DNA of 5,659 nucleotides, taken from a virus (lineage: Duplodnaviria; Heunggongvirae; Uroviricota; Caudoviricetes). Below, piece by piece: positions 1-5,659 of this stretch. The DNA is taken from IMG/VR virus record IMGVR_UViG_2585427766_000017; one strand, 5' to 3'. The position numbers and the translations under genes were made by a program. Under the pieces are notes generated by a model, which saw nothing but the letters and a program-made list of their open reading frames with translations, was not told the DNA's origin and searched no databases. Position 1 is the first letter of the stretch, and each line of letters starts with the position of its first letter.

Positions 1-2053
1 TGGCTGATTAAAACGGAACTGCTGGAAACGCAGACCGTGGACTTCAGCGTGGGTGCGGAAGGGCTTCGCCATGTACCGGGGGATGTCATTGAAATCTGCG
101 ATGATGACTATGCGGGTATCAGCATCGGCGGGCGCGTGCTGGCGGTGAACAGCCAGACCCGGACGCTGACGCTCGACCGTGAAATCACGCTGCCATCCTC
201 CGGTACCACGCTGATAAGCCTGGTTGACGGAAGTGGCAATCCGGTCAGCGTGGAGGTCCAGTCCGTCACCGACGGCGTGAAGGTAAAAGTGAGCCGTGTT
301 CCTGACGGCGTTGCCGGATACAGCGTGTGGGGGCTGAAGCTGCCGACGCTGCGCCAGCGCCTGTTCCGCTGCGTGAGTATCCGTGAGAACGATGACGGCA
401 CGTATGCCATCACCGCCGTGCAGCATGTACCGGAAAAAGAGGCCATCGTGGATAACGGGGCGCACTTTGACGGTGACCAGAGCGGCACGGTGAATGGTGT
501 CACGCCGCCAGCGGTGCAGCACCTGGCCGCAGAAGTCACTGCAGACAGCGGGGAATATCAGGTGCTGGCGCGATGGGACACACCGAAGGTGGTGAAGGGC
601 GTGAGCTTCCTGCTCCGTCTGACCGTAACAGCGGACGACGGCAGTGAGCGGCTGGTCAGCACGGCCCGGACGACGGAAACCACATACCGCTTCACGCAAC
701 TGGCGCTGGGGAACTACAGGCTGACAGTCCGGGCGGTAAATGCCCGGGGGCAGCAGGGCGATCCGGCGTCGGTATCGTTCCGGATTGCCGCACCGGCAGC
801 ACCGTCGAGGATTGAGCTGACGCCGGGCTATTTTCAGATAACCGCAACGCCACATCTTGCCGTTTATGACCCGACGGTACAGTTTGAGTTCTGGTTCTCG
901 GAAAAGCGGATTGCGGATATCAGGCAGGTTGAAACCAGCGCCCGCTATCTTGGCACGGCGCTGTACTGGATAGCCGCCAGTAGCAATATCAAACCGGGCC
1001 ATGATTATTATTTTTATATCCGCAGTGTGAATACTGTTGGCAAATCGGCATTCGTGGAGGCCGTCGGTCGGGCGAGCGATGATGCGGAAGGTTACCTGAA
1101 TTTTTATAAAGGGTTGATCAATAAAACACATCTCGCCAAGGAACTGTGGAAAACATTGATAACGGAAGATAACGCCAGCTGGCTGAAATCAGGACGTCCA
1201 TTCGAAAGAGTGAAAGGACGCCAACAAGAAATGGAAGACCATGTGGGGCGTCAAAATTGAGCAGACCAAAGACGGCAAACATTATGTCGCGGGGCTTGGC
1301 CTCAGCATGGAGGATACGGAGGAAGGCAAACTGAGCCAGTTCCTGCTGGCAGCAGACAGGATTGCGATGATTAATCCTGCAAACGGGAATGAAACGCCGA
1401 TGTTTGTGGCGCAGGGCAACCAGATATTCATGAACGACGTGTTCCTGAAGCGCCTGACGGCCCCCACCATTACCAGCGGCGGTAATCCTCCGGCATTTTC
1501 CCTGACACCGGACGGGCGGCTGACGGCGAAAAATGCCGATATCAGCGGTAACGTGAATGCGAACTCCGGGACGCTCAACAACGTCACGATTAACGAGAAC
1601 TGTCGGGTTCTGGGAAAATTGTCCGCGAACCAGATTGAAGGCGATCTCGTTAAAACAGTGGGCAAAGCTTTCCCCCGGGACTCCCGTGCACCGGAGCGGT
1701 GGCCATCAGGAACCATTACCGTCAGGGTTTATGACGATCAGCCGTTTGACCGGCAAATTGTTATTCCGGCGGTGGCATTCAGTGGCGCTAAGCATGAGAG
1801 AGAGCATACTGATATTTACTCCTCATGCCGTCTGATAGTGCGGAAAAACGGTGCTGAAATTTATAACCGTACCGCGCTGGATAATACGCTGATTTACAGT
1901 GGCGTTATTGATATGCCTGCCGGTTACGGTCACATGACACTGGAGTTTTCGGTGTCAGCATGGCTGGTAAATAACTGGTATCCCACAGCAAGTATCAGCG
2001 ATTTGCTGGTTGTGGTGATGAAGAAAGCCACTGCAGGCATCACGATTAGCTGA
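1..2053 (+). pseudogene. J: Tail-tip host specificity protein J (lambda gpJ family), 5'-partial and disrupted: central portion in frame 1 (1..1260) and C-terminal receptor-binding portion in frame 2 (about 1214/1241..2053)
   Basis: Frame 1 is open from nt 1 (the GTG at 37 is only the first start-like codon, not a real start) and reads [41 protein letters not shown]...[64 protein letters not shown]...[34 protein letters not shown], which I recognise as near-identical to the central, FN3-like region of lambda J (from memory). Frame 2 ORF 1241..2053 reads [30 protein letters not shown]...[45 protein letters not shown]...DMPAGYGH, matching the lambda J C-terminal region. The two parts are in different frames, and frame 2 carries TGA stops at 1184-1186 and 1211-1213, so no single ORF spans the gene. 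Confidence 0.85.
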
Positions 2054-2071
2054 ATTTTATAACCCAGATAC

Positions 2072-2097
2072 GGGCGCCAGAAATGGCGCCTTTTTTA
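2072..2097 (+). terminator. Putative rho-independent terminator between J and lom
   Basis: GC stem gggcgcc / ggcgcc (2072-2078 and 2085-2090) around loop agaaat, followed directly by TTTTTT (2091-2096); it lies 19 nt after the J stop codon (2051-2053). Confidence 0.65.
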
Positions 2098-2109
2098 TTG
2101 CAGAAAAGC

Positions 2110-2115
2110 GAGAGG
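2110..2115 (+). promoter_or_regulatory. Shine-Dalgarno-like ribosome-binding site for lom
   Basis: GAGAGG ends 5 nt before the ATG at 2121. Confidence 0.5.
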
Positions 2116-2120
2116 TAATT

Positions 2121-2720
2121 ATGCGTAAATTATGTGCTGTTATTTTGTCCGCAGTAGTCTGGCAGGTCGCCGCTGCTACGCCAGCGAGTGCAGCAGAACA
2201 TCAATCCACGCTGAGCGCGGGGTATCTCCATGCCTCGACGAACGTTCCCGGCAGCGATAATCTGAACGGGATTAACGTGAAATACCGTTATGAGTTTACG
2301 GACGCGCTGGGGCTGATTACGTCCTTCAGTTATGCCAATGCTGAGGATGAGCAAAAAACGCGCTACAGCGATACCCGCTGGCATGAAGATTCCGTGCGTA
2401 ACCGCTGGTTCAGCGTGATGGCGGGGCCGTCTGTACGCGTGAATGAATGGTTCAGCGCGTATGCGATGGCGGGTGTGGCTTACAGCCGTGTGTCGACTTT
2501 CTCCGGGGATTATCTGCAGGTGACCGGCAATACGGGGAAAACGCACGATGTGCTGACAGGAAGTGATGACGGTCGCCACAGCAACACGTCTCTGGCGTGG
2601 GGAGCTGGCGTGCAGTTTAACCCGACCGAATCCGTGGCCATTGATATTGCTTATGAAGGCTCCGGCAGTGGCGACTGGCGCACTGACGGTTTCATCATGG
2701 GTGTCGGTTATAAGTTCTGA
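2121..2720 (+). CDS. lom: Lom/Ail/PagC/OmpX-family outer-membrane beta-barrel protein (phage lambda Lom homologue), with N-terminal signal peptide
   Basis: 199-aa ORF with a signal-peptide-like N-terminus (MRKLCAVILSAVVWQVAAATPASA). The motifs GINVKYRYEFTD, SVMAGP, SAYAMAGVAYSR and the C-terminal AIDIAYEGSGSGDWRTDGFIMGVGYKF match lambda Lom as I remember it, including the terminal aromatic residue typical of outer-membrane barrels. Position directly after J matches lambda gene order. Confidence 0.92.
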   Translation: MRKLCAVILSAVVWQVAAATPASAAEHQSTLSAGYLHASTNVPGSDNLNGINVKYRYEFTDALGLITSFSYANAEDEQKTRYSDTRWHEDSVRNRWFSVMAGPSVRVNEWFSAYAMAGVAYSRVSTFSGDYLQVTGNTGKTHDVLTGSDDGRHSNTSLAWGAGVQFNPTESVAIDIAYEGSGSGDWRTDGFIMGVGYKF

Positions 2721-2745
2721 TTAGCCAGGTAACACAGTGTTATGA

Positions 2746-2773
2746 CAGCCCGCCGGTTCAGGCGGGCTTTTTT
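2746..2773 (+). terminator. Putative rho-independent terminator between lom and stf
   Basis: Stem agcccgcc (2747-2754) / ggcgggct (2761-2768) with loop ggttca, followed by TTTTTT (2768-2773); it lies 26 nt after the lom stop codon. Confidence 0.7.
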
Positions 2774-2784
2774 GTGGGGTGAAT

Positions 2785-4295
<1,511 letters not shown>

Positions 4296-4296
<1 letters not shown>

Positions 4297-4925
4297 TGGA
4301 AGCAGTGGACTTTATTACTGCGGTCAGAAATGCCGCTTACAACGAATATGGTGCTATCACCTGCGAGGTTCAATTTGAGGGGGCCGTGGATGCCAGAGGG
4401 GAGCCGAAATGGTCTCCTTTTACGGCCACATCCTTAGATGTTACGGACTATGGCCGACAGCTTTACCATGATCTGGTAAATGGCAAATATGGCGAAGTCA
4501 CCCCATTCTCAGTCACACCTGAGATACTGGAAAGAGAAAAAGCAGCCAGGTGTGAAGAAATTAATCTCTGGCGCGACCAGCAGGAGAATATCGAATACCT
4601 GATGGAGTTTAACGGTCGTCGCTGGGATTACGGCAAGCACACAAAGGAGCGAATTTCAACATCGCTGACCGTTGCCAGAAGCGGGCAACTACCTGAGGGT
4701 TTTGCCTGGACAGATGGCGACAACAATATCGTGCCGGTCACGGCGGCTGAACTGCTGGCTCTGGGGGATGCCATTGAGCTGGCGATGTTCAACAAAGGTG
4801 TGGAAATAAATACCCGCCAGCTGCAGATGAAGGCTGAGGTCAGCGCGCTGCAAACGCTGGAGGAGATTCGGGGTTACGTGGTTGGATGGGCGCATGAGCA
4901 GGTTCACGACACCCGCAATTCTTGA
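4296..4925 (+). CDS. Hypothetical protein in the tfa position; putative tail fibre assembly/chaperone or accessory protein (possibly DUF4376-like, unverified)
   Basis: 209-aa ORF whose ATG (4296-4298) overlaps the stf TAA stop (4294-4296), giving a TAATG translational-coupling junction, with a GAGGGTAAGG Shine-Dalgarno-like stretch just upstream. It occupies the position of tfa in lambda, but I see no similarity to the lambda Tfa sequence. Confidence 0.6.
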
Positions 4926-5271
4926 AATGCTGGATGACTACCGCTGGCGACTGGTGGAACCGTTTGAATTCTGGCTCACGGACGAGCCGGAAGATGTTAT
5001 CAGCGTGCCGGCAGGTTACGTCACTGACCTGGCAAGCGTACCTCGCATCCTGTGGGCGATATTTCCTCCGCACGGGCGTTATGCCAAGGCTGCAATCATT
5101 CACGACTGGATGTACGACAATGGGCTCCGGACAAAAAGAGAGGCAGACAGGATTTTCCTGGATGCCATGAAGGTGCTTAAGGTACCTGCCTGGCGGCGTC
5201 TGATGATGTACTGTGCTGTACGTCTCTTCGGGCGGGGTAACTACGAACCGATACATCAAAAAACAATGTGA
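4894..5271 (+). CDS. DUF1353-like hypothetical protein (phage tail-region accessory protein of unknown function)
   Basis: ORF in a different frame that overlaps the 3' end of the 209-aa gene. It contains PAGYVTDLASVPR...AAIIHDWMYD, which resembles the motif I associate with DUF1353 proteins. The start is ambiguous: TTG 4882 (ORF-track start), ATG 4894 (chosen here), or ATG 4927, which lies one nt after the upstream TGA stop (4923-4925). Confidence 0.6.
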   Translation: MSRFTTPAILEMLDDYRWRLVEPFEFWLTDEPEDVISVPAGYVTDLASVPRILWAIFPPHGRYAKAAIIHDWMYDNGLRTKREADRIFLDAMKVLKVPAWRRLMMYCAVRLFGRGNYEPIHQKTM

Positions 5272-5410
5272 TTTCAGTGATTCACATATCCGGGATAAGA
5301 ATCAAGAAGCCTCAGACACGACGTATGCAGGACGTGCTGCGGTTGGCTGGTGAACTTTCGATAGTGCGAGTATTGAATGATTTCCAGCCGTTACCGATTT
5401 TACGTGTTAA

Positions 5411-5659
5411 TTAGTGAGCAAACCACTCGTCAGCAGACTCCCAGGTATCTTTCAGAGTTTCCTGAACAAAAGTTTTAGCTGAATCTTTATCGGCGGTGCG
5501 CGTAACAGAAAGGCCATCGTTGCTGGTAGCTTTTACGATCACCTCTACATCGTCATAACGTTTACTGATGCGTCGGGTTAATTCTTCCTTTAACGCATCC
5601 ACAGCACCGGTTGGCATTTTAGTCATTTTTTCTTTGGCTATGCAGATTTCAATACGCAT
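5411..5659 (-). CDS. dinI: DinI-family DNA-damage-inducible protein (RecA/SOS modulator homologue), complete; start codon is the last 3 nt of the window
   Basis: 82-aa minus-strand [14 protein letters not shown]...[20 protein letters not shown]...LSV...[11 protein letters not shown]. It matches the E. coli DinI pattern MRIE..IAK...P.GA.DAL..EL.RRI...LSV...QETWESADDWF in length and in N- and C-terminal signatures. Confidence 0.85.

Follow-up and report, generated by a model that had tools for sequence, protein, structure and literature searches.

Why does J, the gene for the central tail fiber and its receptor-binding end, appear as two open reading frames (ORFs) in a lambdoid prophage of Escherichia coli 5-172-05_S3_C3? 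The DNA that raises this question (the window; 5,659 nucleotides (nt), IMG/VR record IMGVR_UViG_2585427766_000017) was assigned by exact-protein look-up to positions 1–5659 of the 48.5-kb draft contig JOQO01000036.1 (assembly GCA_000714135.1) and contains the distal tail region of the prophage. Relative to all of its intact relatives, J is broken in the window. Here we show that two J alleles, distinguished by the alpha-helical shaft of the central tail fiber, are combined in the broken gene. This chimera is a two-parent mosaic free of private mutations, its junction is unique, it lies near the end of a contig, and the same prophage elsewhere carries an intact J. The two-ORF J is most probably not a biological feature.

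The break in J

An earlier note, made from the sequence of the window alone, had described a frame-1 stop, two frame-2 stops and a downstream J-like frame with an ATG at 1241. Direct reading of the sequence confirmed each of these elements, which are listed here together with the extent of J.

From position 1, plus strand: the last ~685 codons of J, the 5′ part being cut by the contig start
1–1260, plus strand: upstream part of J in frame 1, open from base 1 to the stop TGA at 1258–1260; Pfam Ig_J and Ig_J_second
1184–1186, plus strand: frame-2 TGA, inside a patch that matches the long-type allele described below
1211–1213, plus strand: frame-2 TGA where intact J genes have the conserved Trp codon of SKEW; its A (1213) matches the long-type allele (AAT GAA ATC)
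1241–2053, plus strand: ORF of 270 amino acids (aa) encoding the central straight fiber and receptor-binding domain of J; Phage_Tail_Tip and Ig_GpJ_C; annotated KEL42527.1

In lambda, in other phages and in E. coli prophages, an intact J is uninterrupted here and reads ...LTEDNAS[RK].... In the window, the final ~27 codons of the upstream frame (from 1180) are an out-of-frame reading, and frame 2 directly 5′ of 1211 reads NQDVHSKE followed by the stop. Positions 1000–1500 (501 nt) align to 497 nt in every intact J, a net shift of +1. A single continuous frame of ~1130–1160 codons, present in all close relatives, is absent from the window J, and the interruption falls, as the earlier note had it, ahead of the C-terminal receptor-binding part. 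A Pfam scan locates the break between Ig_J_second and Phage_Tail_Tip; in a repaired translation the whole series Ig_J, Ig_J_second, Phage_Tail_Tip and Ig_GpJ_C scores above the Pfam cut-offs. J is doubly damaged, by this internal break and by the contig start, which truncates its 5′ part, including the hub part. The N-terminal ~450 codons are on another contig or missing; base 1 of the window is the contig end within J, and the 'GTG 37' ORF start in the mechanical ORF list is no true start of J.

Phage lambda gpJ (1132 aa; PDB 8IYK, 8XCK and others) provides the closest frame of reference for the position of the break. The gene order (...I-J-lom-stf-tfa) and the Pfam series are the same in lambda and in the window, DNA identity is 86.5% over 1000–1500, and the C-terminal ORF aligns to gpJ 862–1131. 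Whereas lambda gpJ is uninterrupted, the window J frame is interrupted within the alpha-helical shaft, at about gpJ 824–862. Residues 841–861 of gpJ are the AHS helices, which refold to a beta-sheet upon LamB binding and release the fibronectin type III (FNIII) domains, and the lower alpha-helical shaft transmits the receptor signal to tail opening (PMC11101478). Because this part of the shaft refolds upon receptor binding, the break lies inside a mechanically important element of the central fiber and not in a passive linker; the earlier note had put it in a linker.

The two ORFs might nevertheless be functional if the 270-aa fragment were made separately from ATG 1241, for example by termination–reinitiation, or if +1 frameshifting at 1214–1257 restored J. 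ATG 1241 is the first start after the TGA at 1211 and sits 17 nt 5′ of the frame-1 stop (ORF overlap, 20 nt), which makes coupling physically possible; one +1 shift anywhere in 1214–1257 would join both ORFs; and isolated C-terminal gpJ fragments (gpJ713) fold and bind receptor in vitro (PMC11101478). However, the Met is internal and conserved, equivalent to lambda gpJ residue 862, and the GGAAG at 1233–1237, just 3 nt 5′ of the ATG, was made by a 2-nt chimeric patch. No promoter-like site was found before ATG 1241, and direct reading of 1214–1257 revealed no slippery motif (X XXY YYZ or prfB-like). A split would also destroy the lower alpha-helical shaft (gpJ 841–861) and leave the unattached fragment without a link to the tail tip.

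Conservation points the same way. Exact look-up of the tail-fiber assembly protein Tfa returned this tail module at seven loci, of which six lie at yecD/aspS, and J is intact in all seven as a single ORF of 1131–1132 aa. The two-ORF layout occurs in no close relative, and the best matches in 50,697 phage records have an intact single-ORF J. A functional split is therefore highly improbable, and the separate 270-aa product proposed in the earlier note finds no footing in the window or its relatives. Programmed frameshifting or stop readthrough was rejected for the lack of both a slippery motif and conservation in relatives.

A mosaic of two shaft alleles

Comparison with relatives revealed two classes of J. 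Among 283 retrieved J relatives, the shaft segment between ...EGYL and MW[AG]V... measures either 46 aa or 74 aa and never anything between; the two lengths are 28 aa apart, which, judging from the sequences, would correspond to four heptads. Two natural shaft lengths four heptads apart plausibly explain the lack of hybrids. By contrast with these natural lengths, the window hybrid, once repaired, would have a segment of ~47–48 aa, and none of its hybrid 5-mers occurs in the 283 relatives. Both shaft classes can join the same upstream body and the same receptor-binding domain, as is seen when the metagenome contig L010 is compared with loci L011 and L016.

The lambda-type (46-aa) class is represented by L016 (GCA_049977625.1) and L023 (GCA_042859095.1), which carry the same prophage at yecD/aspS, with DinI, yecD and aspS as neighbours and 98.3% overall identity to the window. 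Both have J as a single 1131-aa ORF whose shaft is purely lambda-type. They show one difference from the window in 1–694 and none in 2300–5659; the remaining differences all fall within 695–~2290, where the window always departs toward the long-type allele. The long-type (74-aa) class is represented by intact J genes in E. coli GF153 (L004; 1159 aa) and in L010. The latter differs from the window at seven positions in 572–1098 and three in 1520–2855, and its Lom is identical. These long-shaft alleles match one patch of the window exactly (1179–1202) and supply the other donor-type sites, whereas ~75 of their extra bases are missing from the window and the common patch is read out of frame there. 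The long-type sequence in the window takes the following forms.

695–1098, plus strand: long-allele stretch, like L010 and unlike the otherwise identical L016; donor-type for the most part but broken up by some short recipient-type blocks, with a run of 32 donor-type sites in 695–879
1123–1241, plus strand: fine-scale chimeric zone that breaks the frame; 15 alternating lambda-type and long-type tracts
1179–1202, plus strand: 24-nt patch CTGGCTGAAATCAGGACGTCCATT, identical to long-shaft alleles, in which it encodes LAEIRTSI in a third frame
1343–1380, plus strand: clean in-frame long-type patch with 13 informative sites within lambda-type sequence; both borders are unique to this record

Relative to the lambda-type allele, the lesion comprises changes of −1 (1146), −2 (1159) and +7 (~1180–1199) plus eight substitutions, all within ~110 nt; at 1211, TGG has become TGA. 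The bin 1141–1200 holds 19–24 differences from lambda-type alleles, and most other 60-nt bins hold 0–6. The 24-nt patch substitutes for ~17 nt of lambda-type sequence, which yields the net +7. It is flanked by the short microhomologies CTGG, TT and CGAA, and its junctions create sequences such as GCCAGCTGGCTGAAATC and GTCCATTCGAAAGAGTGAAAGG.

To assign each base of the scrambled zone (1123–1241) to a parent, the window was aligned with lambda-type (L011/L001) and long-type (L010) sequences. MAFFT and low-gap-penalty pairwise alignments misplaced the patches and were replaced by a hand-curated three-way alignment; its rows, once the gaps were removed, were checked against the real sequences. 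This alignment contains 66 informative columns, 38 in the lambda-type state, 28 in the long-type state and none private, with 14 switches between parents. The A of the TGA at 1211, the net +7 and the GA at 1237–1238 that creates GGAAG all come from long-type patches. In eight of the nine indel blocks the window takes the gap state, whichever parent has the bases, and a long-specific block of ~75 nt is missing. The earlier note had read the lesion as a TGG-to-TGA change plus a nearby 1-nt indel. The TGA at the conserved Trp codon and the net +1 shift both stand, but the point mutation and single indel give way to a two-allele patchwork of −1, −2, +7 and substitutions.

The mosaic extends beyond this zone. 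With L016 as recipient and L010 as donor, every variable site in 572–1700 has either the recipient or the donor state, and again none is private. The blocks span 1 to 185 nt, with ~12 switches outside the scrambled zone.

695–879: donor (32 sites)
937–939: recipient
942–954: donor
955–983: recipient
990–1053: donor
1062: recipient
1065–1095: donor
1099–1107: recipient
1123–1241: scrambled zone
To 1342: recipient
1346–1378: donor (13 sites)
1381–1519: recipient (20 sites)
1597–1678: donor

In a map of 7-mer peptide support built from the 283 relatives, the translation is unsupported only at 1117–1258, at both borders of the 1343–1380 patch and at one H>Y site, which is also carried by L010.

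These data bear directly on the possibility that J is an ordinary pseudogene of a cryptic prophage, inactivated by a spontaneous TGG-to-TGA change and a nearby 1-nt indel. Relatives do have TGG at the site of this TGA, and the frame moves by a net +1. Simple frameshift-broken J genes are also known, for instance in E. coli DEC3F (CCC to CCCC ~80 nt 5′ of the equivalent Met) and in the CP-933K fragment P0139. However, the −1, −2 and +7 differences and all eight substitutions match the long-type allele, and chance coincidence with one allele is not expected of spontaneous mutations. Moreover, the zone holds no private mutations, and the 3.4 kb downstream are 100% identical to prophages with intact J. 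Decay is consequently very unlikely, and the slow erosion of a cryptic prophage suggested in the earlier note is not borne out. Targeted mutagenesis of the diversity-generating retroelement type was dropped as an explanation, since the changes are not adenine-specific and all match the second allele.

'Split J' annotations have several trivial origins. The DEC3F locus (L026, AIFJ01000092.1, 1–400) also has a 270-aa ORF from the same Met, within 400 nt of the contig start. There, unlike in the two-allele chimera of the window, one additional C in a CCC run (GAATCCCCATCTC) accounts for the split, which has the look of a sequencing error in a homopolymer or of a simple frameshift. In the error-rich assemblies L012 and L013, J lies in many pieces with a separately annotated C-terminal ORF, which again is not a two-allele chimera. 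The short J ORFs P0121 and P0146 were considered as similar chimeras and set aside as uninformative, as they come from assemblies in which J is shattered throughout.

Origin of the chimera

On balance, we favour an in-silico origin, in which two co-resident copies of J were fused into a chimeric consensus. One copy would have been of the lambda type (46-aa shaft segment, as in L016 and L023) and the other of the long type (74-aa segment, as in L010 and GF153). Their reads or sub-assemblies would have been merged to one consensus. In well-aligned regions, this consensus would track a single copy for some tens to hundreds of bases before changing to the other. In the indel region (1123–1241), column-by-column merging would produce a scrambled sequence of the wrong length with an in-frame TGA. 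The real prophage would carry an intact J, and the two-ORF layout would have no biology behind it. We infer that the merging took place in assembly rather than in the cell and that a second, long-type copy of J is present in this genome.

Several observations speak for a consensus chimera. The contig ends in J, 694 nt 5′ of the first donor-type site, and multi-copy sequence lies near this contig end; E. coli genomes carry a median of 2, and up to 10, J-like sequences. Single chromosomes can hold two copies of this very module, as L019 and L020 show, and the same prophage has an intact J in L016 and L023. The two-allele mixture was not found in the independent assemblies searched. An independent contig, L009, also breaks off at 1520, where the allele types converge. 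Furthermore, the preference for the gap state and the missing ~75-nt block are as expected from a majority-vote consensus of two alleles. Assembly error was one of the options listed in the earlier note, and the two-allele mosaic, its occurrence as a singleton and its position near a contig end tip the balance modestly in favour of that option.

The mixture was sought in several collections. The best match to the 138-nt junction in 5,426 complete E. coli genomes is 83%, and a junction 29-mer and 23-mer were absent from exact scans of species-representative genomes, IMG/VR and JGI metagenomes. In three protein searches, for which a repaired 683-aa query was included to bring in full-length J proteins, no intact natural allele with a hybrid shaft was found, and identity over the full length reached at most 94%. 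This one contig is the only known source of the exact 270-aa protein. No paper was found in the literature for the assembly accession, and a 206-aa Tfa variant common to four assemblies of the same project was not on record.

Other points weigh against a consensus chimera. The in-silico origin is drawn from sequence comparison, and a long-type copy of J elsewhere in this assembly is presumed. A pure de Bruijn assembler cannot swap alleles every 5–25 nt, which means that an overlap/consensus, gap-closing or polishing step is required. In addition, 1239–1342 is purely lambda-type at all ~42 informative sites, whereas a simple 50:50 vote predicts mixing. L010 and L016 are stand-ins for the true parents, so that part of the switching seen outside the scrambled zone could merely reflect how stand-in and parent differ; hand curation of the 119-nt three-way alignment likewise favours finding a parent for every base.

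In a second explanation, the DNA itself is chimeric. A real and very recent recombination of two lambdoid J genes, either co-resident or one infecting and one resident, would have put long-type sequence into a lambda-type J. The route would have been either homeologous gene conversion in which heteroduplex repair was patchy or a series of template switches at microhomologies; the outcome would be a scrambled, poorly alignable shaft and a dead J in an otherwise intact tail module. A mosaic that draws on two parents and has no private changes is expected of a recent event no less than of an artefact. The purely lambda-type 1239–1342 and the clean 38-nt patch at 1343–1380 resemble discrete tracts more than a per-column vote, and microhomologies (CTGG, TT and CGAA) lie beside the 24-nt patch. 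On the other hand, the junction is a singleton in all collections searched, it lies within 1.3 kb of a contig end that falls in a repeat, and the gap-state preference of the indel blocks has no obvious biological reason. E. coli methyl-directed mismatch repair acts in long tracts, which also speaks against an exchange of this kind. We regard real recombination as possible but short of probable.

The published record of lambdoid mosaicism bears on both sides of this question. Lambdoid phages and prophages swap short diverged segments by means of Rad52-like recombinases, with a median mosaic of ~400–500 bp, and small fragments are exchanged more often than whole modules (PMC3945230). Such relaxed recombination is compatible with a real exchange in J. 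The mosaics described by De Paepe et al. (2014; PMC3945230) likewise involve short diverged segments between co-resident elements, but they measure hundreds of base pairs and have recognisable homologous borders. In the window, the parent changes ~26 times over ~1.6 kb, including 14 changes within 119 nt, which is far finer than in reported phage mosaics (PMC3945230). That the chimera is genuine DNA, a ~1.6-kb conversion tract resolved to more than 25 donor and recipient patches, down to single bases, over a segment with a 28-codon difference between the partners, that killed the tail-tip gene of an otherwise intact prophage, is in our judgement rather unlikely.

Were it genuine, it would be a case of natural multi-switch homeologous recombination in E. 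coli, by template switching or ultra-short-patch repair, and of one-step prophage inactivation. Recombinational inactivation of J would then be a known kind of event, unusually fine-grained, and the junction would capture, as a finding of modest interest, homeologous recombination between prophage tail genes at a very fine scale. That shafts fall into discrete classes of 46 aa and 74 aa, without viable hybrids, would explain why such exchange kills J. Under the favoured reading of a consensus chimera, the lesson is one of caution. A split J with the 270-aa KEL42527.1, annotated as a 'fibronectin type III family protein', resembles a domesticated or decaying receptor-binding module, whereas comparison with the same prophage elsewhere shows a scrambled merger of two alleles beside a contig end. 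Counts of 'defective' prophages and of orphan receptor-binding fragments taken from draft assemblies will include such cases.

The lambda-type and long-type J alleles converge at window position 1520, which marks a natural recombination or module boundary and an assembly branch point. An independent metagenome contig (L009, ERZ1026808 NODE_2229), 99.8% identical to the window, starts exactly at 1520. That L009 breaks there indicates that assemblers meet a branch point at this position.

Receptor class, gene content and related loci

The last ~150 aa of the window J form a receptor-binding domain of another specificity class than the LamB-binding domain of lambda. The solved structure closest to this receptor-binding end is 'A8 gpJ 713' (PDB 9WCA/9WCB), with E = 2e-128, compared with E = 1e-105 for lambda gpJ. 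On this sequence similarity, the receptor class of the prophage is probably that of A8 rather than that of lambda's LamB-binding domain.

Downstream of J, the window contains the following features. The genes lom, stf, tfa, DUF1353 and dinI are all intact.

2072–2091, plus strand: terminator-like hairpin and T run, 3′ of the J stop codon
2121–2720: lom
2785–4296: side tail fiber gene (stf)
4296–4925: DUF4376 tail-fiber assembly gene (tfa)
4882–5271: DUF1353 ORF
5411–5659, minus strand: DinI-like gene

On the contig, the window is followed 3′ by yecD and aspS, 100% identical to E. coli chromosomes. This site is a prophage integration hot spot at which tail modules vary by strain, as in L014 (NZ_CP195498.1) and L015 (NZ_CP166722.1); one of these two loci has a J of 1232 aa, and in the other, a remnant, IS1 interrupts the tail fiber gene. 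E. coli H101 and H102 were tried as a direct comparison and rejected, their yecD–aspS flank being identical but their tail modules different.

Two copies of the module can share a chromosome. L019 and L020 (GCA_900450395.1) are two such copies, whose J genes share the same differences from the window in 1–1600. In both this genome and GCA_054888795.1 (L017/L018), two copies of an identical tfa(DUF4376)–DUF1353 module lie 130–180 kb apart. The module at L017, L018 and L021 has unrelated genes as neighbours and lacks an upstream call for J, lom or stf; these loci may be remnants or rearranged prophages. In all related loci, as in the window, the DUF1353 ORF overlaps the 3′ end of the DUF4376 gene by ~30–45 nt in another frame.

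The side tail fiber gene contains a collagen-like Gly-X-Y array, (GDK)n, at 3727–3839, which can be described as 12 copies of period 9 or 4 copies of period 27 with 90% match. The array region differs among relatives (27 differences in the 3701 bin for L020, L024 and L025; Stf of 494 aa versus 503 aa), and the array is therefore variable in length.

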